The notes under the pieces were generated by a model. The model was not told where the DNA came from. It saw only the letters and a program-made list of their open reading frames with translations, and did not search any database. The position numbers were made by a program, and so were the translations under genes. A stretch of DNA of 64,000 nt, from assembly GCA_015370545.1 (NCBI GenBank), contig GCA_015370545.1_3932.1; one strand, given 5' to 3'. This document shows positions 1,607-53,525 of the stretch, in pieces. This DNA is from a phage. The first letter of the stretch is position 1, and each line of letters opens with the position of its first letter.

Positions 1607-4156
1607 ATGGCAGATTACAAATTGAGTCAATTAAACTCAATCGACACAATTCGTTCAGAAGACCTATTGCACATCAGAGTTAAGAAAAGACCTGAAATGT
1701 TGGGTGATGAAGACCGTAGAATGACCTATCAAGACTTCTTGGCTTCCTTCAAACTAGAAAGGTTTGTTCAGATTGCTGGAAGCACTATGACTGGGGATTT
1801 AGGTATTGTCAAGTTACTTTACGGTGGAAAGTCTGTATTTGACCCTACAGGCTCTTCTGAGATTACTATTGGGGATATTTTAAAGACTTTTAAAATTAAC
1901 GCAAATGGTCTTAAACTAACTATTGCAGATGCTTCAAGGTCAGCAACTGTTTATCATACTCTGAATAAGCCAAGTCCTAATGAGCTTGGTATGAGAACTA
2001 ATGAAGAGAATGATACAAGATACGCAAGACTTGCTATCACAAACACATTCTCTGGAACTCAAAATATTCAAGGTGATGCTAACTTACTTCGCCTTAGAAA
2101 CCAAAATGCAAATAATGCACAATATATCGAAGGTGTAAACCTAGATGGTTCGGCTAGATGGTGGGTTGGTATTGGTAGTAATGGCTCTGACGAAGTAAAG
2201 CTGTACAATAACAAATACAACTCAGCCTTGACTGTTGCAAGTAATGTCTCTGTTAATAAGTCTTTAGCAATCACTGGTCAAGTTCAACCTTCAGATTTCT
2301 CTAACTTAGATGCTAGATACTTCACTCAGACAGTTGCTAATCAGAGATTTGCACAGTTAGCTGGTAATAACACCTTTACAGGTGCTAACACATTTAGGAC
2401 TATGAGTGTTATCTCAAATGCTGCTGCTATCACACTGCAATGTGCATCAGCAAACGAATCCCTGTATCTACTTGCAAAAGATTATGAAGGTGGAAACTTA
2501 TGGTATCTTGGTAAAGGTAGTTCAGGTGCTGGTGTAACTATCTACAACTATACCACTAACACCTCTTTAGTCTTAGATGCTGCTGGAGTATCAGCAAATA
2601 AAAATGTCAGAATCACTGGTCAAGTTCAACCTTCAGATTGGGCTAACATTGACTCTAGATATATTCCGGCAGCAACATTAAGTACAATTGCAAGAACTAA
2701 TGCACAAAATGCTTTTAATGGTGTACAGAAAGTTGTTACGGATAATGAAGCCCTAATTGTGAAAAACTCTACTCAGAACAGACCATTGTATATCCGTGGT
2801 GTGGACACTGCTAATGTGTCAAGGTGGTGGGTAGGTGTTGGTGGGGCAGATACTAATGATGTAACCCTAAATAACAGTTTTTCTGGCACTCAGTTAGTTC
2901 TCGGGAATACAACATCATACATTAACAAAACATTGACTATTGCTGGACAAGTTCAACCTTCAGATTTCTCTAACTTAGATGCTAGATACTTTACGCAAAG
3001 TGCTAGTGATAGTAGATACCTAAGAATCAGAAGCACTAGCTTCAATGTGGGAAACACTGATAAGTGGGCTAAAATTGCCACTGTTGTGATGCCACAATCA
3101 GCATCCACTGCTGTTATTGAGGTATTTGGTGGGTCAGGTTTTAATATTAATACACCAAACCAAGCAGGTAAATGTGAAATTGTTCTGCGAACTTCAAATA
3201 ACAATCCAAAGGGCTTAAATGTTGTTGCTTGGAGAACATCAGAGAACACCATTGTCAGGGATATTGGTTATGTGAATACTTCTGGAGACACCTATGATAT
3301 TTACTATCTTGCTGGTACGTATCAAAACAGCACAACGACAAGGGTTCAGTCTTCTAGTAATGCAAGTGTACAGTTGTTTGAAGTCCCACAGACATTTGAT
3401 GATGCTCCACAAGGTATTGTGAAGGGTACAATTGCAAAATACTACACAAGTTTGCAAAAACCAACCCCTTCAGATATTGGTGCATACACTAAAGCAGAAA
3501 CTGACCAGAAGATTGCAGAAGCAATTAGTGACTCTACAGACCTGAATAAAATCTATCCAGTAGGTATTGTGACGTGGTTTAACAGTAATGTTAACCCTAA
3601 TACAGCACTTCCTGGTCTAACTTGGACGTACCTGAATAATGGTGTTGGTAGAACTATTAGAATTGCAGCAGCAAACGGTTCAGATGTTGCTACAACTGGT
3701 GGTTCAGACTCTGTAACGTTGTCTGTTGGTAACTTGCCTTCACACACGCACAGCTTCTCTGCTACTACTTCATCATTTGACTATGGTACTAAGACTTCTA
3801 GCACAACTGGTAACCACAACCACAACAGAGGTACTATGGAGATTACTGGTTCATTTGGTTACTTCAGAAGTGACGCTAGTAGCTTCTACACAGCAAGTGG
3901 TGCATTCTACCTCGGTAGTCAGGCAGGTTCTAAAGGGTATACTGGTAACAACTTTACTAATGGTATCCCTGTCAACTTCAACGCATCAAGAAACTGGTCT
4001 GGTGTAACGAATACAACAGGTAACCACAGCCACACTGTTGGTATTGGTGCTCACAGCCACACAGTTAGCGGTAACACAGGTGGTACTGGTTCTGGTTCAG
4101 CATTTAGTGTTACTAACCAGTTCTATAAGTTAATGGCTTGGGTAAGAACTGCTTAA
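1607..4156 (+). CDS. long tail fibre protein
   Basis: 849-aa ORF; threefold internal repeat ITGQVQPSD(F/W)(S/A)N(L/I)D(A/S)RY; C-terminal HxH repeats (HTHSFS, GNHNHN, GNHSHTVGIGAHSHTV) and ending shared with ORF 385..1560. Confidence 0.75.
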   Translation: MADYKLSQLNSIDTIRSEDLLHIRVKKRPEMLGDEDRRMTYQDFLASFKLERFVQIAGSTMTGDLGIVKLLYGGKSVFDPTGSSEITIGDILKTFKINANGLKLTIADASRSATVYHTLNKPSPNELGMRTNEENDTRYARLAITNTFSGTQNIQGDANLLRLRNQNANNAQYIEGVNLDGSARWWVGIGSNGSDEVKLYNNKYNSALTVASNVSVNKSLAITGQVQPSDFSNLDARYFTQTVANQRFAQLAGNNTFTGANTFRTMSVISNAAAITLQCASANESLYLLAKDYEGGNLWYLGKGSSGAGVTIYNYTTNTSLVLDAAGVSANKNVRITGQVQPSDWANIDSRYIPAATLSTIARTNAQNAFNGVQKVVTDNEALIVKNSTQNRPLYIRGVDTANVSRWWVGVGGADTNDVTLNNSFSGTQLVLGNTTSYINKTLTIAGQVQPSDFSNLDARYFTQSASDSRYLRIRSTSFNVGNTDKWAKIATVVMPQSASTAVIEVFGGSGFNINTPNQAGKCEIVLRTSNNNPKGLNVVAWRTSENTIVRDIGYVNTSGDTYDIYYLAGTYQNSTTTRVQSSSNASVQLFEVPQTFDDAPQGIVKGTIAKYYTSLQKPTPSDIGAYTKAETDQKIAEAISDSTDLNKIYPVGIVTWFNSNVNPNTALPGLTWTYLNNGVGRTIRIAAANGSDVATTGGSDSVTLSVGNLPSHTHSFSATTSSFDYGTKTSSTTGNHNHNRGTMEITGSFGYFRSDASSFYTASGAFYLGSQAGSKGYTGNNFTNGIPVNFNASRNWSGVTNTTGNHSHTVGIGAHSHTVSGNTGGTGSGSAFSVTNQFYKLMAWVRTA

Positions 4157-4838: not shown

Positions 4839-5738
4839 CTACTTACCTACTGACAAAGGTGCTTCAATCTTTCCTGCATGTTGGTAGTTGTAAATGCCAC
4901 CAATAAAATCACTTGCAGTAAGGTGTTTTAGGTCACTTAGTGTGTTAAGTGGTACACCAATCTCAAAAGTAGGTGCATGGAACTCTTCATTGTTCATCAG
5001 TTCATAAACCTGTTTCATATGGTTCTGATAAATCTGAGTATCTCCAAAGACACCTATCAAGTACCGTGGAGTGTATCCAGTCATCTTACAAAGAACTTCC
5101 AGAATAAAACCGTAAGATGCAATATTAAACGGAAGTCCTAAAAAGGTGTCTACTGAACGTTGATACCACTGTAAGTCAACTTCACCCTCATTAGTGATAT
5201 AAATCTGAAACAGAACATGACAAGGTGCTAAAGCCATCGAGTTGGATGCAATATCTGCTGCATTCCAAGCATTAACAAGCATGTAGCGGTCTGTAATATC
5301 ACCCTTCATCTTCGTTACTAAGGTCTCTAACTGGTCTACAACACAACCATTATGACCTTCAAAGTTTCTCCACTGAACCCCGTAGATTCTCCCACCTGCA
5401 TCCTCTAACCAATCTTGTTCAGAGGAATAATTAGAGCTTAACCAACGTTTAAAATCATCTGACCAGATTGTCCAGCGTTCTCCGTCATTTTCATCCCAAG
5501 TACGGTAACGAAGTTCACCAAGCTTATTCTCACCATTCAGGAACCATAAAGCTTCCCCAATAACTTGCCGTGTAAACACCTGTTTAGATGTCAAGAGTGG
5601 GAAACCAGTTCTCATATCAAAACGAAACTTAGGTGGGGCAAATGCAGAGATAACATCTCCAGTTCGTGTAGTACGCAGTTCACCAACGGATAAAACATGG
5701 CTTAGGATATTTTTGTAACTTGTATCTGCTTGTGACAT
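4839..5738 (-). CDS. td: thymidylate synthase
   Basis: 299 aa; active-site context LAPCHVLFQIY, overall ThyA-like length; uninterrupted ORF. Confidence 0.9.
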   Translation of the reverse strand: MSQADTSYKNILSHVLSVGELRTTRTGDVISAFAPPKFRFDMRTGFPLLTSKQVFTRQVIGEALWFLNGENKLGELRYRTWDENDGERWTIWSDDFKRWLSSNYSSEQDWLEDAGGRIYGVQWRNFEGHNGCVVDQLETLVTKMKGDITDRYMLVNAWNAADIASNSMALAPCHVLFQIYITNEGEVDLQWYQRSVDTFLGLPFNIASYGFILEVLCKMTGYTPRYLIGVFGDTQIYQNHMKQVYELMNNEEFHAPTFEIGVPLNTLSDLKHLTASDFIGGIYNYQHAGKIEAPLSVGK

Positions 5739-44269: not shown

Positions 44270-45055
44270 ATGGGTATTGTAAAAATAATTAATGGTGATA
44301 TCTTTGCCGCATTTGATAAAGGTAAGTTTGACATCATCGGTCACGGTTGCAACTGTATGAATTTAATGAGTGCAGGTATCGCTGACAAGATTTCTAAACT
44401 TTACCCAAAAGCATATGAGACCGATACAGAAGTTTATCTGTATGCAGGTGGTATAGGACACAAACCCTGTGAAAATTTACTAGGTAATTTCTCTGTAGCA
44501 CGTTTAAAACAAGGTCGTATAGCTAATCTTTACACTCAGCTTAAGACTGGTAAAGATGCCCGATACAGTGCTTTAGAGTCATCTTTGAAACAGCTTAACA
44601 GATACTGTGAAGTTAATCAGTTGAAGAAAGTTGGGTTACCTATGATTGGTGCAGGTATCGGTGGACTTGACCCTCAAGCCGTTACCGTTATCATTAATCA
44701 GGTGATGAAGAGTGTAGATGTGTATCTGTATGTCTACGAAGGAGAGATGTACCACAAGTTACGCTCAGGTTGGAATAACTACTGCGAACCAGAATACTTT
44801 GCAGGTGTAGTAACGTTCACAGACAATGCAGTTACCCTCTTCAGACGAAGAAAAGGTAAGATACATCAAAGTAACCCTCCGGTTGAAAAGATGTCTCTAA
44901 GTAACGCTCTAGTTACCCACCTGTCGAAGAGCAATCACAGAATTGCAGTAACATTTGGCAGTGATGCAGACACATATATCTATGCAAGGACTGATGAAGA
45001 TATCGAGGAGATTTTCTCATCACAAGAAGTTACCTTCTTAGACGCAAAGAACTAA
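44270..45055 (+). CDS. macro-domain-like (ADP-ribose binding/processing) protein
   Basis: 261 aa; N-terminal GDIF...DIIGHGCNCMNLMSAGIA and glycine-rich VGLPMIGAGIGGLDP fit the macro-domain pattern; extra C-terminal region. Confidence 0.5.
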   Translation: MGIVKIINGDIFAAFDKGKFDIIGHGCNCMNLMSAGIADKISKLYPKAYETDTEVYLYAGGIGHKPCENLLGNFSVARLKQGRIANLYTQLKTGKDARYSALESSLKQLNRYCEVNQLKKVGLPMIGAGIGGLDPQAVTVIINQVMKSVDVYLYVYEGEMYHKLRSGWNNYCEPEYFAGVVTFTDNAVTLFRRRKGKIHQSNPPVEKMSLSNALVTHLSKSNHRIAVTFGSDADTYIYARTDEDIEEIFSSQEVTFLDAKN

Positions 45056-45085
45056 TAAACTCTGTAGAATATTCACAATAGATTA

Positions 45086-45130
45086 AGCCTTCCTTATCTG
45101 GTAAATTTTTCAGGTAAGGAAGGCTTTTTT
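45086..45130 (+). terminator. rho-independent terminator
   Basis: 10-bp stem GCCTTCCTTA/TAAGGAAGGC followed by TTTTTT. Confidence 0.6.
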
Positions 45131-45320
45131 ATTTCAAGATTGTGCAGGTAGAGTTCTGTAGAGAAATCTGTAGAGAAAATTTTGAACTCCAAAGAGAAAA
45201 TTCATTTTCAAACTGTGCAGGTAATCTCCAAAGAGCTTTTTCATTTTCAAAACGTGCAGACCCCGCTCAGGTCGGGCAAGAAAAATCATTTTAGAATTGT
45301 GCAGGTAGGTGGATGCAGGT
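45120..45320. repeat. four direct repeats of TTTTCAAAnTGTGCAGGTA-type unit in ORF-free DNA
   Basis: copies near 45125, 45205, 45245 and 45290; flanking CTCCAAAGAG also repeats. Confidence 0.5.
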
Positions 45321-45484
45321 GGGGATGTCGCCATTTCTCACAAGGCTAACACATCTGGAAATAAAAGTCAACAGAAAAATTTGTAGCGGATTGAAAAATA
45401 ATTCTTGATTGTAGTTCTGTTTTGTGGTAGTCGCGTGCGCCCGTTTCATTACAATTTTTGCAAAAATATTTTTAAAATTCCTAT

Positions 45485-45575
45485 TGACTCTTTGAGTATG
45501 GTTATCTAATATTTGCATCAACGGGGAGGGAATGACCTTCCCCACTAAGTAAAGTCCTAAACTGGAGATTCTAAA
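45485..45575 (+). promoter_or_regulatory. promoter + conserved 5' hairpin leader + RBS
   Basis: TTGACT-17 nt-TAATAT, then CAACGGGGAGGGAATGACCTTCCCC hairpin, then AAACTGGAGATTCTAAA ATG. Confidence 0.55.
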
Positions 45576-45956
45576 ATGGCATACCGTGCACCTAAATTCA
45601 TCAACAAAGACAACTTCCGCAACGCACTGGAGAAGTCACTTGATGAAAAATTTAACGGCAAATTGATTGTTGTTCACGCATTCAATTTTAAGTATGATAT
45701 TAACGGGAATAAAATCAACCATTACACGGCAACCATGTTAGATGGTACGCTATCAAGTGAAAAAGCCGTACTGAATGCACTTGCAGGACGTGGTAAAAAC
45801 CTGATAAGCTGCAATAAGAGACGTTATCAAGGTGGCGCATATGGTTATGATGATGCTGTTTACCATCTTGAAAATATGGGCTATTCAGTGGAGAAAGCTG
45901 GAGCGTCTCAAATAATTGGTAGTGATGGTTATGTGACAATCTTCAAAATTAAATAA
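45576..45956 (+). CDS. small cassette protein 1
   Basis: 126-aa ORF behind conserved leader. Confidence 0.55.
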   Translation: MAYRAPKFINKDNFRNALEKSLDEKFNGKLIVVHAFNFKYDINGNKINHYTATMLDGTLSSEKAVLNALAGRGKNLISCNKRRYQGGAYGYDDAVYHLENMGYSVEKAGASQIIGSDGYVTIFKIK

Positions 45957-46042
45957 AAGTACTTTACAAGGGGCTTATAGTTCGATAAAGTAAGCCCCAG
46001 ATAAAGAGCTTTATCACTCAATCCTAAATTGGAGATTCAAAA
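45957..46042 (+). promoter_or_regulatory. conserved intergenic cassette (hairpin + palindrome + RBS)
   Basis: AAGTACTTTACA-GGGGCTTA...TAAGCCCC-AGATAAAGAGCTTTATC-...TGGAGATTCAAAA; one of four near-identical units. Confidence 0.55.
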
Positions 46043-46300
46043 ATGGCTATTATCAAAAACGTTGTAGTTCCTGCAAAAACTCGTGATGACGCTCGCATCA
46101 TGGCGAAAAAGTTAGGCGGGAAAGTGGTTGACAACGGAAAACAATCTGCTGTAAGATGGAGCGTGAAGGCTGATAAGCAACTAACCTTAAAACGCAGTTC
46201 AAACAATCTTTTTAAAGGTGTAAAATCACTCGGTAAAGTGAACGTGTTTACCAAAAAAGGCTATAAAATGCACTTATCATTAACTGGCAATTTAATCTGA
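46043..46300 (+). CDS. small cassette protein 2 (basic)
   Basis: 85-aa ORF behind conserved leader. Confidence 0.55.
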   Translation: MAIIKNVVVPAKTRDDARIMAKKLGGKVVDNGKQSAVRWSVKADKQLTLKRSSNNLFKGVKSLGKVNVFTKKGYKMHLSLTGNLI

Positions 46301-46390
46301 TAAAGTACTTTACAGGGGGCTTAAAAGCTGATATCTTAAGCCCCAGATAAAGAGCTTTACCACTCAATCCTTAAACTAGGAGATTCAAAA
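46301..46390 (+). promoter_or_regulatory. conserved intergenic cassette
   Basis: same unit as 45957..46042. Confidence 0.55.
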
Positions 46391-46903
46391 ATGAAAACTG
46401 TAGAAGCTACCTTTGAAGTTGTAAAAGAAAAATTTTCCATCATTTACGAAGCTGTTAATTGCTTTGAAGCAAGCCATAACCTTGATAATTGGGAGTTTAC
46501 AGATGACCATCAAGGCGGCGTGACTATTAAAAACCCCAACTGTCAGCGTAATGATTTTAAATATGCAATCCCTTTACATTACAGCCTTAAACAGCTTTCA
46601 AGTGACTATGCAAAACAAGGCCGGGAAAATCCATCAAAAGAGGCTTACATAAGCTTACAGAAAGAACTAGAAAGAGATTTAGAGGCTTCAGAATACAACC
46701 TTGCCGCGAAAGTTGTCGATGCAAATGGTCAAACAATTTTAGATAGTTTTTATATTGGTTACGCTTTCGATTGGTGCTATAGTGACGGCGATGATTTAGA
46801 GGATAGACTAAAAGAAGAGGTGAGCAATTCAGACGCAGAATCTGAAGTATTAGAACGCTTGGAAGCATTAAAAGATTCAGTGATGAATATCTTTAAGAAC
46901 TAA
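46391..46903 (+). CDS. small cassette protein 3 (acidic C-terminus)
   Basis: 170 aa; D/E-rich C-terminal region. Confidence 0.55.
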   Translation: MKTVEATFEVVKEKFSIIYEAVNCFEASHNLDNWEFTDDHQGGVTIKNPNCQRNDFKYAIPLHYSLKQLSSDYAKQGRENPSKEAYISLQKELERDLEASEYNLAAKVVDANGQTILDSFYIGYAFDWCYSDGDDLEDRLKEEVSNSDAESEVLERLEALKDSVMNIFKN

Positions 46904-46990
46904 ATAGATTTCTTTACACGGGGCTATCAAGCTGATAAGATAGCCCCAGATAAAGAGATTTATCAACTATCCTAAACTGGAGATTCAAAA
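46904..46990 (+). promoter_or_regulatory. conserved intergenic cassette
   Basis: same unit (GGGGCTATCAAGCTGATAAGATAGCCCC hairpin variant). Confidence 0.55.
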
Positions 46991-47287
46991 ATGAAATTAT
47001 CAAATAAAGTCCGTGAAAATCTAAGCAAGTTACTCAACAAAATTGATTTTATCGAGACATCAAGGAATAGTCATGATGTTATGGAATGGTTACACGGAAA
47101 AATCAAAGGCCGTCGTGTAGTGATTTGCTTATGGAATAGTTGCAGGGAATATAAAAAACCTGTATTACAAGTCAATATCTATGATGATACTTTTAAAAGC
47201 CCTGTAAAGTCTAAAAGTGATTTATTAGAATCCTATGAGATAACTGTAAATGGCAAAGTATCAAGTAAAGAGGAAACACCATGTTAA
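46991..47287 (+). CDS. small cassette protein 4
   Basis: 98-aa ORF. Confidence 0.5.
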   Translation: MKLSNKVRENLSKLLNKIDFIETSRNSHDVMEWLHGKIKGRRVVICLWNSCREYKKPVLQVNIYDDTFKSPVKSKSDLLESYEITVNGKVSSKEETPC

Positions 47288-47613
47288 TGACTGGTATCAC
47301 TGCAATCATTGCCATTTTCGCGCTATATAAGGCATATAAAGCCTATAATCTAGCAAATAAGGCAATCACACAGCAGGTTAGCAATAGCCTTGTAGAAAGC
47401 TTTCTAGGGCGTCTCAGTGATGAGCAAATAAAGCGGTTAGAAATGAGCTTCAGATTCAAAGCGAAAACCTATCAGATAAGTGACATCTTCAAGGATGATT
47501 TCCAGTTAGTCGATGATTATAATTCTCTGATAAATGCTTTAAATATCAGTGACTTAAAAGACTACTACGCTGTAATTGTTCAAGAGTTGAGCAAACGAAA
47601 ACAAAACTGTTGA
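47281..47613 (+). CDS. small cassette protein 5 (membrane anchor)
   Basis: 110 aa; N-terminal hydrophobic segment ITAIIAIFALY; overlaps previous stop. Confidence 0.5.
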   Translation: MLMTGITAIIAIFALYKAYKAYNLANKAITQQVSNSLVESFLGRLSDEQIKRLEMSFRFKAKTYQISDIFKDDFQLVDDYNSLINALNISDLKDYYAVIVQELSKRKQNC

Positions 47614-47702
47614 CACTGATTTTTAGATAGATTAAATTACACATCAACGGGGAGGGAACAACCTTCCCACTAAATAAAGTCCTTAAACTAGGAGATTCTA
47701 AA
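47610..47702 (+). promoter_or_regulatory. promoter + conserved 5' hairpin leader + RBS
   Basis: TTGACA-17 nt-TAAATT, CAACGGGGAGGGAACAACCTTCCC hairpin, TAGGAGATTCTAAA ATG. Confidence 0.6.
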
Positions 47703-47975
47703 ATGTATACTACTAACAATGGCCTCACTTTGAACGTCACACTACGTCACTATGTAGATGGTGTCATGCACTTTGAAGATTTACAAGCTGAACAACATAT
47801 CTTAGATTGGCAAGTCGCAGGACTCCAAAAAACTGCTACGGGATACGGTAAAAAGATTCCAACTAGTTGGAAAGTTCACTATGAAGGACGTTTGCGCAGA
47901 ATTTATCAAGATGTGCAAAGCAATAGCGCATCGAGTTACATTATAGTAAAAGGTGAAAAACTGCATTTAGTATAA
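47703..47975 (+). CDS. small cassette protein 6
   Basis: 90-aa ORF. Confidence 0.55.
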   Translation: MYTTNNGLTLNVTLRHYVDGVMHFEDLQAEQHILDWQVAGLQKTATGYGKKIPTSWKVHYEGRLRRIYQDVQSNSASSYIIVKGEKLHLV

Positions 47976-48060
47976 AGTACTTTACATGGGGTTTAAAAGT
48001 TGGTATCTTAAGCCCCAGATAAAGAGCTTTACCCCTAAATCCTAAATTGGAGATTCAAAA
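47976..48060 (+). promoter_or_regulatory. conserved intergenic cassette
   Basis: same unit as 45957..46042. Confidence 0.55.
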
Positions 48061-48465
48061 ATGGCTATTAATAATCGTGAGTTATCAATCTTAAAAGCAC
48101 GTTTAACCGTTAATCGAATCAATGTTATCACGTCATCAGCACCAGACGAGACATTACACAACATTATCGGGAAGATTCAAGGTGTTATCTTAGACGTTGA
48201 GAATGTAAAAAACTCATTAGCAGACGTTGCAGCAGGTGTTACACTAGACGGCGCACAATATGAAATGATTGACATGTTAGGCAAATCAAAGGTTATGAAT
48301 AAAGAGTTAGACTTAAAAATGTTTCGATTTGCCGTGAAAGTATGGCTATCTGTCGAGTATGATGCTAATTTTGCAATTGCTGATTTCTTTGCCACTTGGT
48401 TGCAACGTAACTTAACAAATCATGATTTTCGTGATATCTGTGATGCAATTTACGCAGAACTTTAA
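48061..48465 (+). CDS. small cassette protein 7
   Basis: 134-aa ORF. Confidence 0.55.
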   Translation: MAINNRELSILKARLTVNRINVITSSAPDETLHNIIGKIQGVILDVENVKNSLADVAAGVTLDGAQYEMIDMLGKSKVMNKELDLKMFRFAVKVWLSVEYDANFAIADFFATWLQRNLTNHDFRDICDAIYAEL

Positions 48466-48473
48466 AAATTTTA

Positions 48474-48565
48474 TTGACACTGATTTTTAGATAGACTAAA
48501 TTACACATCAACGGGGAGGGAACAACCTTCCCACTAAATAAAGTCCTTAAACTAGGAGATTCAAA
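48474..48565 (+). promoter_or_regulatory. promoter + conserved 5' hairpin leader + RBS
   Basis: TTGACA-17 nt-TAAATT; near-identical to 47610 copy. Confidence 0.6.
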
Positions 48566-49108
48566 ATGAAATGCTTTCACGGTACTACTCAAGAAAACTT
48601 TATCAACCTGATTAATAACGGTGATAAACCATCAGGTGTATGGAATTGTTCGGATATGGACGGCAATTTTTACGTGTACCCAGAAAATAAACTCTATGGT
48701 GATGATGAGGAAGAGATAGCATCGGAAGGTATCCAGCAAGCTCTAGGAAATGCCACTATCACGGCAGCTTTTCAGATGAAAACTCAAAATATTGTTATCT
48801 TAGAACTTGACATTCCAGAGGATGAGCTAAATGATGATTATTCTTGTGATAACATGTCAAATATAGCAAGCTTTACAGAGTACTTTGATGTAAATTGGAT
48901 TAAAAAGGTCTATACAACAGAGTTCAACGCTATGTATTCACCTTTTTGTCTCCCTTCACTGGATAACCCAAATTTGAATTATCTTGATGAAACATTGGAG
49001 CTACTTGCTAAAAGTATCCAACAATCCGACAGTATTCAGGTTTTTTGTGACATCATGGATACACTGACAGAAAACATTGTAGAGAGTGATTTAAAGGTCT
49101 TTTTCTAA
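48566..49108 (+). CDS. small cassette protein 8 (highly acidic)
   Basis: 180 aa; very D/E-rich with almost no Arg. Confidence 0.55.
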   Translation: MKCFHGTTQENFINLINNGDKPSGVWNCSDMDGNFYVYPENKLYGDDEEEIASEGIQQALGNATITAAFQMKTQNIVILELDIPEDELNDDYSCDNMSNIASFTEYFDVNWIKKVYTTEFNAMYSPFCLPSLDNPNLNYLDETLELLAKSIQQSDSIQVFCDIMDTLTENIVESDLKVFF

Positions 49109-49142
49109 AAACCTATACATTCACCTTATAAACACTGATTAA

Positions 49143-49160
49143 CCCCTTACAGGGGCTTTT
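49143..49160 (+). terminator. rho-independent terminator
   Basis: CCCCT-TACA-GGGGC followed by TTTT. Confidence 0.5.
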
Positions 49161-49174
49161 AGAGGGCTTAAATC

Positions 49175-49408
49175 ATGCTTACAACCATTTATCTCATCCT
49201 TTCTATCTGTAACGGTCATTCATGTGACTTTAAAGGGCTTGAAGAGTTTACAGGAAGTAAAGAAAATGCTATTCAGGTTTGCCAGATAGCAAGACAAGAC
49301 TATCCCGCCAGTGACGACATTCAATGCTACTTTAAGACAGAAGATGAAGACGGCATCTATTTTGACAGCGTTGACGGTCAATATGAAATTATCATTGAAA
49401 AAGACTAG
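49175..49408 (+). CDS. small cassette protein 9
   Basis: 77 aa; hydrophobic N-terminus, acidic body. Confidence 0.5.
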   Translation: MLTTIYLILSICNGHSCDFKGLEEFTGSKENAIQVCQIARQDYPASDDIQCYFKTEDEDGIYFDSVDGQYEIIIEKD

Positions 49409-49499
49409 ACAAGCCTGATAAAAGTCTGTAAATTGTCAATCAACGGGGAGGGAATGACCTTCCCCACTAAATAAAGTCCTTAAACTAGGAGATTCAAAA
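49406..49499 (+). promoter_or_regulatory. promoter + conserved 5' hairpin leader + RBS
   Basis: TAGACA-17 nt-TAAATT then CAACGGGGAGGGAATGACCTTCCCC hairpin. Confidence 0.55.
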
Positions 49500-49841
49500 A
49501 TGGCTTATGTAACCGTAATTACCGATAAAGCTGGCTCATCTTGGTCAACTCAGGTTAGTGATAAGATGTCGCCTATGCAGTGCCTAAAATACTTTGAGCA
49601 GTGGAACAAAGGCGAGGATGTAAGCCCCTTTCAAGTGATGCAAATCATCCATACAGATAACGAAGGGAATAAAACGACCTTGAACAGTGAATACTACGCA
49701 AGCCGTTTTGAAACGAGAAGTAAAACAATGAAGCTTTTACGTGAATCCGGCTATTCTCATATTGCCGCGCTAATCTGGGATGACCTGCTAAAAAGCCAGC
49801 GTATCAGCTATGTAAAACCTGAAAAAATATTCATCAGTTAA
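49500..49841 (+). CDS. small cassette protein 10
   Basis: 113-aa ORF. Confidence 0.55.
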   Translation: MAYVTVITDKAGSSWSTQVSDKMSPMQCLKYFEQWNKGEDVSPFQVMQIIHTDNEGNKTTLNSEYYASRFETRSKTMKLLRESGYSHIAALIWDDLLKSQRISYVKPEKIFIS

Positions 49842-49872
49842 TCAATAACTTACAAAAAACTTTTAAAAAAGT

Positions 49873-50062
49873 GTTGACAATACCCCTTGACATTGGTAAC
49901 TTTGTTCGAGGGGGTTTATCTAAAAGGGATTCACTTAATAGATTCTTTATAGATAAACTTAAAAAATTGCTTGCAAAGGCAAATCAAAACAAGTAAATTA
50001 CTAATCAACGGGAAGGGATTAACCTTCCCACTAAGTAAAGTCCTTAAACTAGGAGATTCAAA
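49873..50062 (+). promoter_or_regulatory. tandem promoters + conserved 5' hairpin leader
   Basis: TTGACAATACCCCTTGACA at 49873, then TTGCAA-17 nt-TAAATT at 49971, then CAACGGGAAGGGATTAACCTTCCC hairpin. Confidence 0.5.
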
Positions 50063-50593
50063 ATGAACAAGTTTCAAGCTATCAACTATATTCGCTCATC
50101 CAACGTTATGACTAAGCCCGTTAAAGATACCTTCGAATTTCGTTGCAACGGTGTACACTTTGCAACTATCACTAAATCAGAAAACGGGGCTTATTATATA
50201 CATCGTCGTAATGCCTCTACTGTTGTAGTCTCTCACTTTATGCAAGCTGTAGCAGAACTGTTACCGCTATTCTTAGGTATTTACTTAGATGAGTGCAAAA
50301 ACGTTCGCAACCACGTTAAAGACCTTTTAAATGGTTATAAAATGGCTTATGAACGTTCTATCAAGAATCTTAACAAGTTCTATAAAGCCCCTGAAAATAC
50401 TGTTTCAATGGCTTACAGTGTAAGCGGTGAGTTGGTTAGCCTCTTTGAAGTGGAAGAAATCGCGTTGCATGACTTACGCCCTAGCGGTTACTCTAAGACA
50501 CTAGAGGAAGGTTTAACGTTCAATATCAAGAACTTAGAAAAAACTTTAAAAGATATTGAAAAAGATATTGACGAGACAATCAAAAATCTGTAA
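50063..50593 (+). CDS. small cassette protein 11
   Basis: 176-aa ORF. Confidence 0.55.
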   Translation: MNKFQAINYIRSSNVMTKPVKDTFEFRCNGVHFATITKSENGAYYIHRRNASTVVVSHFMQAVAELLPLFLGIYLDECKNVRNHVKDLLNGYKMAYERSIKNLNKFYKAPENTVSMAYSVSGELVSLFEVEEIALHDLRPSGYSKTLEEGLTFNIKNLEKTLKDIEKDIDETIKNL

Positions 50594-50655
50594 ATTGTCA
50601 ATCAACGGGGGATAACCTCCCCCACTAAACAAAATCCTAAACTGGAGTTATCAAG
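50566..50655 (+). promoter_or_regulatory. promoter-like + conserved 5' hairpin leader
   Basis: TAAATT box at 50591 then CAACGGGGGATAACCTCCCCC hairpin; -35 uncertain. Confidence 0.45.
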
Positions 50656-50919
50656 ATGGAAAACGTAGAATTAACCACACTTTTACAAATTGCAACCGAC
50701 AAAGAAGATGTAGCATTATTCCACCGTATCGAAAGCGATTTGTTCAATGGTGAAATCATTAAAGAATCTTACGAAGTTGTCGGATTCAAAGATGGTAAAG
50801 CATTTGGCTTTTTTGACCTCGACAAAAGCAAAGCGGTTACAATGTACGATGTTCTATCTTGTGAAATTCTGACAAAATACAACGAAAAAAGGCTTGCAAC
50901 CTACGCCAATATGCAGTAA
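50656..50919 (+). CDS. small cassette protein 12
   Basis: 87-aa ORF. Confidence 0.55.
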   Translation: MENVELTTLLQIATDKEDVALFHRIESDLFNGEIIKESYEVVGFKDGKAFGFFDLDKSKAVTMYDVLSCEILTKYNEKRLATYANMQ

Positions 50920-50986
50920 ATTACTAATCAACGGGGAGGGAATGACCTTCCCACTAAACAAAGTCCTAAACTGGAGAATCTAAATT
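50894..50986 (+). promoter_or_regulatory. promoter + conserved 5' hairpin leader + RBS
   Basis: TTGCAA-18 nt-TAAATT then CAACGGGGAGGGAATGACCTTCCC hairpin. Confidence 0.5.
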
Positions 50987-51235
50987 ATGTCAACTATCCG
51001 CGTAACTGTTAATGCTTATGGCTGCCACAAACTTGATGCAAAATTCGATATCGGTGGAACAGATAACACCTTTGACCTTATCAAAATGCTGATTCAGCAG
51101 GTGATACCAGATTATAACCCTACTGATGACTTCTGGAAAGATGCCGTAAAAGAAGCCATAAACGAGGAATCTCACTACCATTATTGGGGTGACTTGATTG
51201 TCTCTCTATACTACAGCAAACAAGGCTACAACTAA
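50987..51235 (+). CDS. small cassette protein 13
   Basis: 82-aa ORF. Confidence 0.55.
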   Translation: MSTIRVTVNAYGCHKLDAKFDIGGTDNTFDLIKMLIQQVIPDYNPTDDFWKDAVKEAINEESHYHYWGDLIVSLYYSKQGYN

Positions 51236-51273
51236 TCGACGCAACGGGGCTAAATAGCCCCAGATACCTTTAC

Positions 51274-51296
51274 AGCCCCTTAAATGGGGCTTTTTT
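51274..51296 (+). terminator. rho-independent terminator ending the cassette array
   Basis: AGCCCC-TTAAAT-GGGGCT followed by TTTTTT; preceded by a second GGGGCTAAATAGCCCC hairpin. Confidence 0.65.
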
Positions 51297-51299
51297 ACG

Positions 51300-52860
51300 T
51301 CTATCGAATCCTTATACAATCCCTTTCCCTTTCCTTTCTAGAATCTTATCAGACCTTAAAAAGCAATAACTCTATAGTCTACTCTATAACCTCTTATCAA
51401 ATCAACTTAAATATAAGCCAATAACCCCAGAAAGGGGATGGCCCATTAAAACGCTCTATAAAGCTCTATAACAGCCTTATCAACCTAACTTAAGCAATCA
51501 TATTAACCCACTCTAAAAAGCCCTTTATAGAGCTTCCCAGAGCCTTAAAAGAATCTTATAAGGGTGAAAGCTTATAGGCTGGCTAGTATCTTGTGAATAA
51601 CTAAACAATCCCCTTGATAGTCACTAAAAAGCATGTTATAGGGGCTATAAAGTTACTTCAAAGTAACGTAAAAAAGGCTATAAAGTTACGTAAATGCTAG
51701 CCCCCTTAACATTTTCTTAACAATTTCTTAACAATCCCTACATAGTTATGCTTGTTAGAGACTTGTTAGCCCCTTGTTAAATCTCTGTTACAACCATGTA
51801 AAAGCCTTGTAAGAACCTTTGACATAGCCTTAAAAGCCCTGTAAAGCCCTATAAAGAGCTATCCATACAGTTGGGCTGTAGTTACTAGGGAGAGACTTAA
51901 AAGGGGCTATACAGAGCTATAGAGGGCTTTTAAGAGGTATGTTTAAAGAATCACTAAGAATCAAAGGGAACGATAAGAAAAGAGATAGTGACCATGTTAA
52001 TAGCTTGTTAAAAAGATTAAACACTTGTTAGAAACTTGTTAATTATCCCTACAAAATAACTCTTTAAAATTAACTTGTTAGCTCTTGTTAGTCATCTGTT
52101 AAGACTCTGTAAAGACTATTCAGCACTTGTTAGAAAACTGTTAAGTTCTTGTTAGTTCTGTTAAGAAACTGTTAAGACCTTTGGAGAGTTGTTAAGAGCT
52201 TGAGAGAGTTGTTAAGAGATTGTTAAGGATATTTTAAAATTCTGCAAAGTACTTGTAAGGGAGCTGTTAAGGGCTACCAAGCAGATATACATCTTCTACA
52301 GATATTTTTCAGTTCCTTCAAAGACCCTAAAAAATGACTTGATAGCCCTATTTTATAAAAATTTTAAAATTCTGAATAATTACCTAGACAGTCTTTTAAA
52401 AATACAGGTAGAAACAGGCTTATAAGATACCTTGTTAGTACCGTGTTAGACCTTGTGAGATAAGGTCTGTGAAGATATTCCTGTTAAGTTTGTTAAAACA
52501 GTCTATATAGAGGCTTAGTAGTACCTAGTGAACATCTATAGAGGGTATCATAGCTAACCTAGAGATTAAGAGGTGTATAGGGGCTTCTAAGAGGGTATAG
52601 AGAGATGGTTAAGGTGATTGTATAGGTTGTTAAGAAGGATTGTTAGAAGAGTGTTTAGAGGGCTATTTAGAAGGGTTATACAGAGGGCTATTAAGACCAC
52701 TAGATAGTTACTAAGATACTATATAGTACTATATAACTATATAGAGAGTAAGATTAAGAAGGTTGTTAAGAAGGATAGATATCTTATTCACATATGATGG
52801 TGACCCAGAGGTTGGGACAACCGATAAAATTTTATAAAAATATAAATTTCGTAAATTTTA
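51300..52860. repeat. ORF-free iteron-rich region (candidate origin or packaging/regulatory locus)
   Basis: no ORF of 60 aa or more; dozens of (C/T)TGTTA(A/G) units at about 10-11 bp spacing (densest 52010-52260); repeated TATA(A/C)AG(A/C)GCTAT and GGCTATAAAGTTAC units; ACTATATA triple near 52720. Confidence 0.6.
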
Positions 52861-52901
52861 CTCAATAAAAAGCCCCCAATTAAGGAGGCTCTTAAGATAT
52901 T

Positions 52902-53525
52902 TTAAATCAGTGTTTCCAGAACTGTTTTTAGTGATGACTTGGTTGTCTGATAAAAATGAGTAAAGCCGTTGTTGTTATCAAATACCTGCATCATGATATC
53001 ATCTCCCTTGATTGGGTACACTCGGATATCATAGTGAAAACCATTAAAGACACAAGAGCCATTACAGAATGCACTAAAGTCATCCACTGAGATATACTCT
53101 TCATGTCCTGTGATTTTTATACAGATACCTTTACTCGGTCTCTTAGGATTAATATCTTCCATCACAGACATATTCTGTCCGCCAAGAGATACCATAGTGA
53201 CCACTTTACGGTTCTTCTGTCTAAAGTACATTTTAACTTTCTGCAAAGTGTCTTCATAGAACGGATAAGACTTCTCTACAAAGATTCCTTCAAGTGGCTC
53301 TTTACCATTTTCAACTTCTCTGTTATGCCGTACTGCAAAGATAATTTGTTCGAACCAGTCAAGATTTTCTTCGGAGAGTGCTTCTCGAATATCCTTCCAG
53401 TCAAGGACTAGATAGTTACCTTCAACTTCTTTTAAGTTATCTTTTTCCATGTTTATCACACCATTATCGTAAAACTTGATATTCTGGTACTGCGAATTTA
53501 TTACTGTTGTTCTTGATGAGGTCAT
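52902..53525 (-). CDS. hypothetical protein
   Basis: 207-aa ORF. Confidence 0.45.
   Translation of the reverse strand: MTSSRTTVINSQYQNIKFYDNGVINMEKDNLKEVEGNYLVLDWKDIREALSEENLDWFEQIIFAVRHNREVENGKEPLEGIFVEKSYPFYEDTLQKVKMYFRQKNRKVVTMVSLGGQNMSVMEDINPKRPSKGICIKITGHEEYISVDDFSAFCNGSCVFNGFHYDIRVYPIKGDDIMMQVFDNNNGFTHFYQTTKSSLKTVLETLI

Follow-up and report, generated by a model that had tools for sequence, protein, structure and literature searches.

The question raised by this locus is why a row of small genes without recognisable domains should be separated, almost gene by gene, by the same repeated sequence. The window, by which we mean the whole 64,000-nt stretch of DNA analysed, is 100% identical to GenBank MH571750, Escherichia phage vB_EcoM-Ro111lw, a Felixounavirus, in whose annotation all 13 genes of the island are 'hypothetical'. 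As the preliminary description had stated, the island consists of 13 plus-strand ORFs of 77-180 aa, located exactly at 45576-51235; Pfam and NCBIfam profiles gave no match above threshold with any of the 13 proteins, and all of them matched PHROGs of unknown function. Among the differences between orthologues, third codon positions were in excess for 13 of 13 ORFs (53-90% of differences), so that these are real genes, and purifying selection acts on all of them. The comparison set comprised 36 related loci, several of them duplicate records of the same phage, with 25 complete islands. The island is a variable (hyperplastic) accessory-gene region of a Felix O1-like E. coli phage, composed of 11 modules, nine with a single gene and two with two genes, and bounded on both sides by strong terminators, which are t13 (left) and t23 (right) of Felix O1 (PMC3185647):

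45085-45126, plus strand: left boundary, strong intrinsic terminator with a 17-bp stem followed by a T-run, 3' of a macro-domain gene
45576-45956, plus strand: ORF1, 126 aa, pI 9.4, phrog_4495 (unknown function), in 21 of 25 complete islands
46043-46300, plus strand: ORF2, 85 aa, very basic, pI 10.8
46391-46903, plus strand: ORF3, 170 aa, acidic, pI 4.49
46991-47613, plus strand: two-gene module with a 7-nt overlap and no spacer between the genes, ORF4 (46991-47287, 98 aa) and ORF5 (47281-47613, 110 aa, N-terminal hydrophobic segment)
47703-47975, plus strand: ORF6, 90 aa, phrog_3436 (unknown function)
48061-48465, plus strand: ORF7, 134 aa, in 25 of 25 complete islands
48566-49408, plus strand: two-gene module with a terminator-like hairpin (49143-49160) between the genes, ORF8 (48566-49108, 180 aa, pI 4.05, zero Arg, the most acidic island protein) and ORF9 (49175-49408, 77 aa, acidic, pI 4.08), each in 23 of 25 complete islands
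49500-49841, plus strand: ORF10, 113 aa
50063-50593, plus strand: ORF11, 176 aa
50656-50919, plus strand: ORF12, 87 aa, acidic; of all modules the most dispensable, found in 14 of 25 islands
50987-51235, plus strand: ORF13, 82 aa, in all islands
51242-51297, plus strand: right boundary, hybrid half-cassette CAACGGGGCTAAATAGCCCCAGATA (51242-51266) and intrinsic terminator (51274-51291) followed by a T-run

Since no island product has a known function, a role of the island in host takeover or anti-defence is a guess. The acidity of several products, from which DNA mimicry had been suggested, is real (ORF3, ORF8 and ORF9, pI 4.0-4.5, ORF8 being devoid of Arg), while of the membrane anchors noted at the same time, the N-terminus of ORF5 (Kyte-Doolittle 1.64 over 19 aa) is the sole convincing one and the hydrophobic segments of ORF9 and of an internal stretch of ORF11 are weaker. 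The early, variable location would also suit an anti-defence block in which ORF3 and ORF8 mimic DNA and thereby inhibit restriction or other DNA-binding defence enzymes. However, phage early proteins are commonly acidic, and the structural models lend the idea no support. The AF2 model of ORF3 (pLDDT 92; a beta-sheet with acidic C-terminal helices) gave no clear known-fold match in a fold search and no recognised DNA mimic among the matches listed, while the best fold matches of the ORF8 model, although weak, are ADP-ribosyltransferases in two independent structure searches, and a few members of the ORF8 family have weak PARP and Tpt1 Pfam matches. DNA mimicry thus appears quite unlikely. ORF8, and within the island ORF8 only, weakly resembles ADP-ribosyltransferases of the H-Y-E branch (PARP, Tpt1/KptA, DarT, toxin A subunits), with H-G-T nearly invariant in the N-terminal beta-strand, a Tyr conserved around the following strand and, in a strand further on, a Glu.

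The repeated sequence itself is a spacer of 62-100 nt, which precedes 11 of the 13 ORFs and occurs in two classes, both ending in one universal ribosome-binding leader. In class A, with seven copies in the window, TTGACA-N17-TAAATT is followed by a G/C hairpin of 7-8 bp; in class B, with four copies, TTTACA-N17-TAnnnT is embedded in a bipartite hairpin of 55-60 nt. The copies and their promoter-like boxes are as follows:

45484-45575, plus strand: class A, before ORF1; -35 TTGACT 45484-45489, -10 TAATAT 45507-45512, hairpin 45523-45543, leader 45556-45575
45956-46042, plus strand: class B, before ORF2; bipartite hairpin 45956-46012 (-23.4 kcal/mol) enclosing -35 TTTACA 45963-45968 and -10 TAAAGT 45986-45991; leader 46023-46042
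46301-46390, plus strand: class B, before ORF3; bipartite hairpin (-26.5 kcal/mol), -35 46309-46314, TGn-extended -10 TATCTT 46332-46337, leader 46369-46390
46904-46990, plus strand: class B, before ORF4; bipartite hairpin 46904-46963 (-30.3 kcal/mol, z -6.6), -35 46913-46918, -10 TAAGAT 46936-46941, leader 46971-46990
47610-47702, plus strand: class A, before ORF6; -35 TTGACA 47610-47615 holding the TGA stop of ORF5, -10 TAAATT 47633-47638, hairpin 47649-47668, leader 47681-47702
47973-48060, plus strand: class B, before ORF7; -35 47981-47986, -10 TATCTT 48004-48009, bipartite hairpin whose inner stem (GGGGTTTAA/TTAAGCCCC) contains a G·U pair, leader 48041-48060
48474-48565, plus strand: class A, before ORF8; 98% identity over 93 nt to the copy at 47610-47702
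49406-49499, plus strand: class A, before ORF10; -35 TAGACA holding the TAG stop of ORF9, -10 TAAATT 49429-49434, hairpin 49445-49465, leader 49478-49499
49842-50062, plus strand: long spacer of 221 nt before ORF11; an additional terminator-like hairpin plus TTGACA-like boxes, followed by a class A unit with -35 TTGCAA at 49971, -10 49994-49999, hairpin 50010-50029, leader 50042-50062
50568-50655, plus strand: class A, before ORF12; -35 TTGACG within the ORF11 coding sequence, -10 TAAATT 50591-50596 holding the TAA stop of ORF11, variant hairpin GGGGGATAACCTCCCCC 50607-50623, degenerate leader
50894-50986, plus strand: class A, before ORF13; -10 TAAATT 50917-50922 holding the TAA stop of ORF12, hairpin 50933-50952, leader 50965-50986

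The near-identical leader of the preliminary description therefore holds for 11 ORFs, but not literally for every one: the two exceptions are ORF5, overlapping with ORF4, and ORF9, with an SD of its own 3' of a small terminator-like hairpin. The motif quoted there, TAAACTAGGAGATTCWAAA(A)ATG, is present in five exact copies and a one-indel variant, CCTAAAYTGGAGATTCWAAAATG, in five further copies, the remaining one being the degenerate copy before ORF12; 0.00 and 0.16 matches to the two forms, respectively, are expected in shuffles, and leader and spacer motifs are confined to the island within the window. The leader exists as two haplotypes (158 versus 103), which never occur mixed; a paired T/A indel between them lengthens the UCC(U)/(A)GGA helix that covers the SD. 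Own hairpins, previously seen behind many genes, were found in all 11 spacers and in two distinct classes, which had been missed, and the modular layout with a promoter-like spacer per module was borne out by a -35/-10 pair with 17-nt spacing in 11 of 11 spacers, 9 of which were recovered by a consensus promoter scan of the window. We propose that the locus is probably an accessory island of 11 expression modules, exchanged by recombination between repeated composite spacers, each of which would combine a promoter of the host sigma-70 type with a structured RNA element and a universal strong ribosome-binding leader.

Both promoter-like geometry and hairpins are conserved beyond the window. Over 37 genomes, TTTACA-N17(±1)-TAnnnT is kept in 155 of 156 distinct class B spacers, where T1, A2 and T6 of the -10 box are invariant, the three inner bases vary (12 variants) and a TGn extension is present in 76 of the 156; in class A, TAnnnT (mostly TAAATT) is kept in 108 of 110, typically 10 nt 5' of the hairpin. 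Folding energies of class B range from -23 to -30 kcal/mol (z -3.1 to -6.6). Over 42 distinct copies, paired cells make up 92.6% compared to 89.3% in shuffles, with a covariation score of 0.127 compared to 0.082 (0 of 500 shuffles reached either value), while slid controls are 32-57% paired. Compensatory changes were of the types U-A/A-U and G-C/U-A, and pairing collapses at depth 10. Since G·U pairs, which are common (C-G versus U-G, 24:24), would be C·A mismatches on the other strand, they indicate, together with the compensatory changes, that the spacer hairpins are sense-strand RNA structures. None of these hairpins carries a U-tract, so that classical intrinsic termination is unlikely. 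We found no study in the literature mapping transcript 5' or 3' ends in any Felix O1-like phage, and we therefore infer promoter use and hairpin function. The short G/C hairpin of class A, about 3 nt past the predicted transcript start and upstream of the SD, may act as a 5' stabiliser. Stable hairpins near the 5' end, of the ompA 5' UTR type, protect from 5'-end-dependent RNase E decay, with the difference that the start site in the island is predicted from sequence. In class B, the promoter lies within the roughly 20-bp bipartite hairpin, which can form only in read-through transcripts from the upstream gene and could keep the modules insulated from each other through 3' end formation, attenuation or processing.

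The same structures could also be read as serving mainly coordinated post-transcriptional control, with the island transcribed as long transcripts and recombination at the spacers a by-product, which we consider possible but rather unlikely. Class B hairpins would then be sites of RNase III-type processing, comparable to those in the early region of T7, and the GGAG leader, invariant and with a small anti-SD helix, a common operator shutting off the whole set, with a phage translational repressor or a RegB-like endoribonuclease as candidate partner. Established precedents are T4 RegB, which cleaves at GGAG, and the RNase III sites of T7. The early region of T7 (genes 0.3-1.3) is a row of small host-takeover or anti-restriction genes, between which conserved interrupted hairpins shape the individual mRNAs and make them more stable. 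Class B is similarly bipartite, an interrupted duplex of about 20 bp with a 3x3 internal loop and covariation in both stems, and is a candidate for such cleavage; in addition, the leader is conserved well beyond the needs of an SD, with only two haplotypes and a paired indel. However, class A hairpins, with 7-8 bp, are much shorter than RNase III requires, T7 uses three left-end promoters versus one per gene in the island, no RegB/RegA homologue is known in the Felix O1-like group, and the linkage of the leader haplotype positions could be trivial, as they are 6 nt apart. Such control also offers no reason for the spacer class to move together with the upstream gene. In Felix O1, RT-PCR showed maximal expression of the homologues of ORF3, ORF7, ORF10 and ORF11 at 5 min (the first three being Felix O1 ORF16, ORF20 and ORF21, respectively) and of the homologues of ORF4, ORF6 and ORF13 at 25 min, that of ORF6 being a divergent allele, ORF19 (PMC3185647). 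Early expression of the island, as expected in the preliminary description, is thus supported indirectly, through the four homologues with a 5-min maximum, and peaks that lie apart despite similar promoters speak for post-transcriptional control, which is compatible with recombining modules; the two explanations are not mutually exclusive.

Evidence for the recombining modules comes from the relatives, where the gain and loss of cassettes proposed as a check in the preliminary description was indeed observed: the 25 complete islands, spanning 9-20 genes and 3.9-7.5 kb, display 20 gene-content architectures, with gene order always collinear. Precise fusions of a left and a right spacer (at least 90% identity) with intact flanking coding sequence account for 42 of 56 indel types, many of which are nested views of the same events. 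Crossovers, mapped over spacers ±40 nt with some noise between diverged lineages, were located in the leader in 21 cases and in the promoter/hairpin part in 18. Identity to the window differs sharply gene by gene, ORF2 occurring in two allele classes (~94% and ~69% nt identity) and ORF13 in at least three (about 68%, 80% and 98%). In an otherwise 100%-identical contig, a 77%-identical allele of the ORF11 module is swapped in with breakpoints in both flanking spacers, and a slot in the 221-nt spacer before ORF11 holds an extra gene in other phages. The spacer class is set by the upstream gene and can change for a given downstream gene, as for ORF8, whose spacer is of class A after ORF7 and of class B in phages with an extra gene inserted between them. 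The exchanged unit would therefore be an ORF with its own 3' spacer, commonly joined at the leader.

It is very unlikely that the island is an ordinary operon, in which the repeats are conserved expression signals and content differences arise from unrelated illegitimate recombination or vertical loss, since the indels are predominantly exact spacer-to-spacer fusions without loss of flanking coding sequence, spacer length stays at about 60-100 nt whatever the neighbours, spacers mark start and end of allele replacements, and one and the same downstream gene can be preceded by spacers of different classes. Strictly conserved gene order would fit an operon, as would the lack of concerted evolution: the paralogous spacers of one genome resemble each other no more than spacers from different genomes do (0.72 versus 0.72 in class A, 0.84 versus 0.83 in class B), while orthologous positions are more alike (0.89), so that there is no sign of frequent intragenomic conversion and exchanges may be rare. 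An adjacent cassette-free block likewise varies at one slot (6 architectures in 22 genomes), from which it follows that spacers are not required for indels.

Among known systems, the island closely parallels the promoter-early stem-loop (PeSL) regulatory cassettes of T4-type phages (Arbiol et al. 2010, PMC2839356; Comeau et al. 2014, PMC4122927). We found no paper applying this idea to Felix O1-like phages, and the Felix O1 genome paper only lists repeats. Shared are a repeated intergenic sigma-70-like promoter (including the TTTACW-N17-TAYWAT type) with a GGGG...CCCC stem-loop and an SD, concentration in a hyperplastic region of small one-strand ORFans, and the use of cassettes as sites of insertions, deletions and replacements between close relatives. 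In contrast, the island phage belongs to the Ounavirinae and is not T4-like, its stem-loop encloses the promoter (class B) or follows the start (class A) instead of lying upstream of the promoter, its two classes share a near-invariant leader as the commonest joint, and its spacer is linked to the upstream ORF. Neither this linkage nor the PeSL precedent had been noted in the preliminary description. For PeSLs, promoter and terminator activity, recombination and mini-circles were shown experimentally (PMC2839356, PMC4122927), whereas the island spacers are known from sequence. The PeSL authors speculated about a protein recognising the GGGG...CCCC stems (PMC2839356), which would suit an integron-like system, where the structured 3' element is an attC-like site for a dedicated recombinase or structure-specific nuclease acting at one defined point. 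As in integron arrays, small same-strand ORFs are each followed by a structured element, here an imperfect hairpin of 55-60 nt, that moves with the ORF. We nevertheless regard this as highly improbable, since crossovers are spread over the whole spacer, no GTTRRRY-type attC core is visible in the island sequences and no integrase is known to accompany them, every spacer has a promoter while integron cassettes are promoterless, the G·U pairs point to RNA and not DNA structure, and module order never changes.

For the accessory island of recombining modules, ordinary homologous recombination may serve instead. The spacers are mutually 72-87% alike and flank every module in direct orientation, which would make recombination precise with respect to modules. 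Acting inside one genome or between co-infecting relatives, it would delete, insert or replace whole modules while leaving the expression of their neighbours unbroken.

The island of thirteen small plus-strand genes, ORF1 to ORF13 (45576-51235), carries PeSL-type shuffling cassettes, named after the promoter-early stem-loop (PeSL) cassettes of T4-type phages, in a phage group where they have not previously been described. Within the 64-kb window these cassettes are confined to the island. By BLAST, 45400-51400 is 100% identical to Escherichia phage vB_EcoM-Ro111lw (MH571750; Ounavirinae, Felixounavirus), and about 250 other Felix O1-like phages, with Escherichia, Salmonella, Shigella and Citrobacter as hosts, match at 87-93% identity over only 52-79% of this region; a T5 pre-early region and N4 early hairpin promoters were dropped as candidates after this assignment. 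We could confirm the positions of all thirteen ORFs of the preliminary description. Each is annotated as 'hypothetical protein' in MH571750, and Pfam, NCBIfam and PHROGs assigned a function to none of the 13 proteins. Across orthologues, third codon positions hold 53-90% of the nucleotide differences, and since differences concentrate there, we consider the 13 ORFs real genes. The near-identical leader, a ribosome-binding sequence said to precede nearly every ORF, was found before 11 of the 13 when the 110 nt upstream of each start were extracted: CCTTAAACTAGGAGATTCWAAA(A)ATG before five ORFs, CCTAAAYTGGAGATTCWAAAATG before five more and a degenerate form before ORF12, with a chance expectation of essentially zero for motif matches. 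ORF5 and ORF4 overlap by 7 nt, and the start of ORF9 is preceded by a small terminator-like hairpin located 3' of ORF8. From the 11 leaders and these two arrangements, the island therefore comprises 11 modules, two of them with two genes. What the preliminary description overlooked is that the spacers, the promoter, hairpin and leader units of 62-100 nt before these ORFs, fall into two classes.

Features of the island and its borders (window coordinates)
44270-45055, macro-domain gene of 261 aa (Macro domain, Pfam E 7.7e-07)
45085-45126, left intrinsic terminator, passes the terminator scan, corresponds to Felix O1 t13 (PMC3185647)
Before ORFs 1, 6, 8, 10, 11, 12 and 13 (plus strand), class A spacers
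Before ORFs 2, 3, 4 and 7 (plus strand), class B spacers
47610-47615, stop codon TGA within promoter hexamer TTGACA
49406-49411, stop codon TAG within promoter hexamer TAGACA
50591-50596 and 50917-50922, stop codon TAA within promoter hexamer TAAATT
51274-51291, right intrinsic terminator, passes the terminator scan, corresponds to Felix O1 t23 (PMC3185647)

In class A, a TTGACA-like -35 element is followed by 17 nt, TAAATT, 10 nt, a hairpin with a G/C stem of 7-8 bp (GGGGAGGG-loop-CCTTCCCC), ACTAAATAAAGT and the leader. The stop codon of the upstream gene is often part of a class A promoter hexamer, which is an extreme packing of coding and regulatory signals. Class B starts directly at the upstream stop codon with a bipartite hairpin of 55-60 nt, composed of an outer helix (AAAGUACUUUA/UAAAGAGCUUU), a 3x3 internal loop and an inner 9-bp helix (GGGGCUUA.../...UAAGCCCC), with a folding energy of -23 to -30 kcal/mol (z -3.1 to -6.6). 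The class B promoter, TTTACA-N17-TAnnnT, is enclosed in this hairpin, the -35 element residing in the outer 5' arm and the -10 element covering the loop and the inner 3' arm. Stems of the polyG...polyC type occur as GGGGAGGG/CCTTCCCC and GGGGCTTA/TAAGCCCC. The sequence GATAAAG-AG-CTTTATC was rejected as a second small 5' hairpin of class B transcripts, having a mismatch in most copies and too tight a loop, and more probably represents the 3' arm of the outer helix. An Rfam scan of 44800-53000 returned chance-level matches only.

A function of the spacer hairpins as intrinsic (Rho-independent) terminators is unlikely given the absence of a U-tract, class A hairpins being followed by ACTAAATAAAG and class B hairpins by UUUAYC; none of the 11 passes the terminator scan, which is passed by the two boundary hairpins only. 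The record KT184316 (phage XTG1) labels class A hairpins as minus-strand Rho-independent terminators (1384-1404, 2249-2269, 3803-3823 and 4964-4984), which is probably a mis-annotation, a T-run being absent 3' of them on either strand. At the borders of the island, 45128-45307, between the left terminator and the first promoter, is non-coding with three to four direct repeats ending in TTGTGCAGGTA, a slot occupied by extra small ORFs in other Felix O1-like phages. On the right, 51300-52900 is a 1.6-kb stretch free of ORFs and dense in short direct repeats (CTTGTTAG, CTGTTAAG, CTATAAAG), which separates convergent transcription units and may serve as an origin, as a packaging or terminal region or as an array of protein-binding sites; the GenBank record opens inside it, at about window position 52312.

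To follow selection on these elements we used distinct spacers from 37 genomes, 110 of class A and 156 of class B. Judged from sequence, a putative -35/-10 pair about 17 nt apart is present in all 11 window spacers, a sigma-70-like geometry in 108 of the 110 class A spacers, and TTTACA-N17(±1)-TAnnnT in 155 of the 156 class B spacers, 76 of which carry a TGn extension. In the class B -10 hexamer T1, A2 and T6 are invariant and the three inner bases occur in 12 variants, the conservation pattern of a sigma-70 -10 element. As T1 and A2 reside in the unpaired loop, structure does not account for their conservation. Pairing in the stems was counted inward from the hairpin ends. In class B, 46-50 of 50 copies pair at each of depths 1-9 of the inner stem and only 11 of 50 at depth 10; U-A and A-U replace each other at depths 7-9, and at depth 5 C-G and U-G are equally frequent (24:24). 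The class A stem alternates between A-U, G-C and G-U. For 42 distinct class B copies, 92.6% of cells are paired compared to 89.3% in shuffles and the covariation score is 0.127 compared to 0.082, values reached by 0 of 500 shuffles in either case; slid controls were paired at 32-57%. Double changes were found at four class B pairs, G-C/U-A in the outer helix among them. G·U pairs are frequent, and as they correspond to C·A mismatches on the other strand, they point to an RNA structure of the sense transcript and not to a DNA cruciform. The leader occurs in only two forms among 261 spacers of the 37 genomes, CCT-AAAYT-GGAG (158) and CCTT-AAAYT-AGGAG (103), which are never mixed; the T/A indel is paired and adds to the length of a small UCC(U)/(A)GGA helix over the Shine-Dalgarno sequence (e.g. 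46369-46390 versus 46023-46042).

The island was compared over 9 GenBank and 27 IMG/VR loci, some of which are duplicates of the same phage. Cassettes are gained and lost across related phages, with 20 different gene contents in 25 complete islands of 9-20 genes and 3.9-7.5 kb, in which gene order is always collinear; the strict regular expressions used for this comparison miss some divergent class A spacers. Fifteen families beyond the 13 of the window occur, giving about 28 in total. Of the window's genes, ORFs 4, 5, 6, 7, 10 and 13 occur throughout, and of the 25 islands 14 have ORF12, 19 have ORF3 and 21 have ORF1. For each indel, where one genome lacks genes that another carries between the same neighbours, we asked if the remaining spacer is a chimera of the left and right spacers of the longer arrangement. 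This was the case at an identity of at least 90% for 42 of 56 indel types, with the inferred crossover in the leader in 21 and in the promoter/hairpin part in 18. Class B always follows ORFs 1, 2, 3 and 6 and the inserted families 34, 36, 42, 55 and 56, class A follows ORFs 5, 7, 9, 10, 11 and 12, and ORF8 is preceded by class A after ORF7 and by class B after an inserted gene. Since the class is set by the upstream gene and the same downstream gene can follow either class, the unit of exchange is an ORF together with the spacer on its 3' side, units being joined at the leader.

In relatives, identity to the window changes from gene to gene in a strongly mosaic fashion. The cleanest event is found in one IMG/VR contig, which is 100% identical through ORF10, carries an ORF11 allele of 77% identity and continues at 97-98%, with breakpoints at 49939-49977 and about 50550-50740, the two flanking spacers. 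Such spacer-bounded module differences support the earlier proposal of modular, exchangeable early accessory genes. The adjoining cassette-free block also varies, at one slot. Concerted evolution of the spacers was rejected, since spacers at orthologous positions (identity 0.89) are more alike than paralogues within a genome (0.72-0.84), and paralogous spacers are as similar within as between genomes. The spacer at 49842-50062 is unusually long (221 nt), with an extra hairpin CCCCTTGA...TCGAGGGGG-TTTAT and TTGACA-like boxes, and in some relatives this slot holds an additional gene (family 57). Located 3' of the last ORF, just before the true terminator, 51242-51266 is a hybrid half-cassette, CAACGGGGCTAAATAGCCCCAGATA, with a class A 5' flank and a class B 3' flank, which resembles a remnant of earlier recombination between spacers.

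Among known systems, PeSL cassettes of T4-type phages come closest. They combine a sigma-70-like promoter (TTTACW-N17-TAYWAT in T4/PST) with a GGGG...CCCC stem-loop and a Shine-Dalgarno sequence, sit in hyperplastic regions and are associated with indels (PMC2839356, PMC4122927). For PeSLs, promoter and terminator activity has been measured and mini-circles have been observed. The island spacers share the sigma-70-like promoter with an adjacent stable stem-loop, the clustering in a hyperplastic region of small ORFs without known function, and the indel and replacement breakpoints between close relatives falling in the cassettes. However, in PeSLs the stem-loop directly precedes the promoter of the same cassette (fig. 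3 legend, PMC4122927), whereas class B hairpin arms straddle the -35/-10 elements and the class A hairpin typically lies 10 nt 3' of the -10 element. The island further differs in its phage lineage, in having two classes with a shared leader and in the tie of the spacer to the upstream ORF. In comparison to integrons, the R'/R'' core of attC (GTTRRRY) was not seen in the spacer sequences, and crossovers are spread over the spacer in contrast to the single crossover point of integrons. The genome paper of Felix O1 (PMC3185647) treats class B and the class A promoter as nothing more than direct repeats, of 57 bp and 39 bp, respectively, and one public record annotates a class A promoter. Our literature search turned up no publication that links PeSLs to Felix O1-like phages, and the Felixounavirus comparative-genomics paper does not discuss the island region. 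Across 245 phage records, class A spacers occur 1,270 times; with one exception these records are Felix O1-like phages or close relatives (Shigella Sf13, Citrobacter Mijalis, phiSUSP1). The exception, GU169904 (Staphylococcus phage SA1), contains a Felix O1-type class A spacer at 132607-132713 (88% identity, 6 places) and is probably chimeric or contaminated.

Felix O1-like phages reportedly lack an RNA polymerase of their own (PMC3185647), and the host sigma-70 holoenzyme should therefore fire the spacer promoters at entry. In Felix O1, RT-PCR showed homologues of ORF3, 7, 10 and 11 to peak at 5 min and those of ORF4, ORF6 (a divergent allele) and ORF13 at 25 min (PMC3185647). A literature search for a transcriptome or start-site map of Felix O1-like phages returned none. 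Class A transcripts would start 7-8 nt after TAAATT, which would leave about 3 unpaired nt 5' of the hairpin. Such a short unpaired 5' end is the classic geometry of a 5' stabiliser. A transcript from the class B promoter itself would lack the 5' arms, which would confine the full hairpin to read-through RNA; there it could act on the upstream message by ending, attenuating or processing it or by protecting its 3' end. Compared with an RNase III processing site of the T7 early type, about two turns of interrupted double-stranded RNA, class B offers 20 pairs in two helices with the 3x3 internal loop and class A only 7-8 bp. The direct repeats of 60-100 bp around each module would be adequate substrates for phage recombination systems; a repeat-recombination model has been proposed, and partly demonstrated, for PeSLs (PMC2839356). 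We consider it unlikely that the spacers constitute an active exchange platform in the widest sense, in which leader-to-leader mini-circles would spread self-expressing host-manipulation genes between co-infecting phages, ORF8 would represent a so far unrecognised small ADP-ribosyltransferase family and the leader would also act as a single post-transcriptional switch for all of these genes.

Computed charges agree with the acidic products described earlier (ORF3, ORF8 and ORF9 with pI 4.0-4.5, Arg being absent from ORF8), and hydropathy is in line with a membrane anchor at the N-terminus of ORF5. The proposal that the acidic proteins are DNA mimics is not supported: the net charges of ORF8 (-24) and ORF3 (-16) are strongly negative as in Ocr/ArdA-type mimics, but no known mimic related by fold or sequence appeared among the matches listed, and an ADP-ribosyltransferase-type fold of ORF8 does not fit it. 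The specific anti-defence claim for the island is likewise not supported. The predicted model of ORF3 is confident (pLDDT 92) but has no convincing fold match. ORF8 (48566-49108, 180 aa) is the island's one functional lead. Its AF2 model is moderate (pLDDT 67, pTM 0.70), with pertussis toxin S1 as a non-significant top match in Foldseek. The family extends far beyond Ounavirinae, with 277 cluster representatives at E ≤ 0.001, and with regard to the catalytic H-Y-E signature, in 115 diverse members H5, G6 and Y36 are at least 90% conserved, Glu80 being only a majority residue. Among these 115, Pfam gave weak PARP matches in 5 and a weak Tpt1 match in 1. A PDB profile search placed Tpt1 at the top, aligned on the HGT motif (E 0.19), and a sequence profile restricted to the close ORF8 family matched nothing in the PDB. 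The absence of Arg excludes an R-S-E signature. From the predicted model and these matches we lean towards an ADP-ribosyltransferase-type fold with an N-terminal H-G-T motif. ORF8 lies 3.5 kb downstream of the macro-domain gene, the last gene before the left terminator, which is annotated as phosphatase or O-acetyl-ADP-ribose deacetylase in relatives, and this pairing is notable.

Felix O1-like phages are widely used in Salmonella and E. coli typing, biocontrol and therapy, with all of their small early genes labelled 'hypothetical'. The 13 families of the island and the roughly 28 across relatives are obvious candidates for host-range, takeover and counter-defence functions, and for engineering, modules could be removed or swapped at the spacers with their neighbours undisturbed. 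If confirmed, ORF8 would add a widespread small ADP-ribosyltransferase-like family to phage early genes, near a gene of the ADP-ribose hydrolase type. Modular shuffling by promoter/stem-loop cassettes, which we found in the literature only from T4-like phages, would reach a second, unrelated myovirus lineage, and the different cassette design in this lineage suggests convergent or general use.
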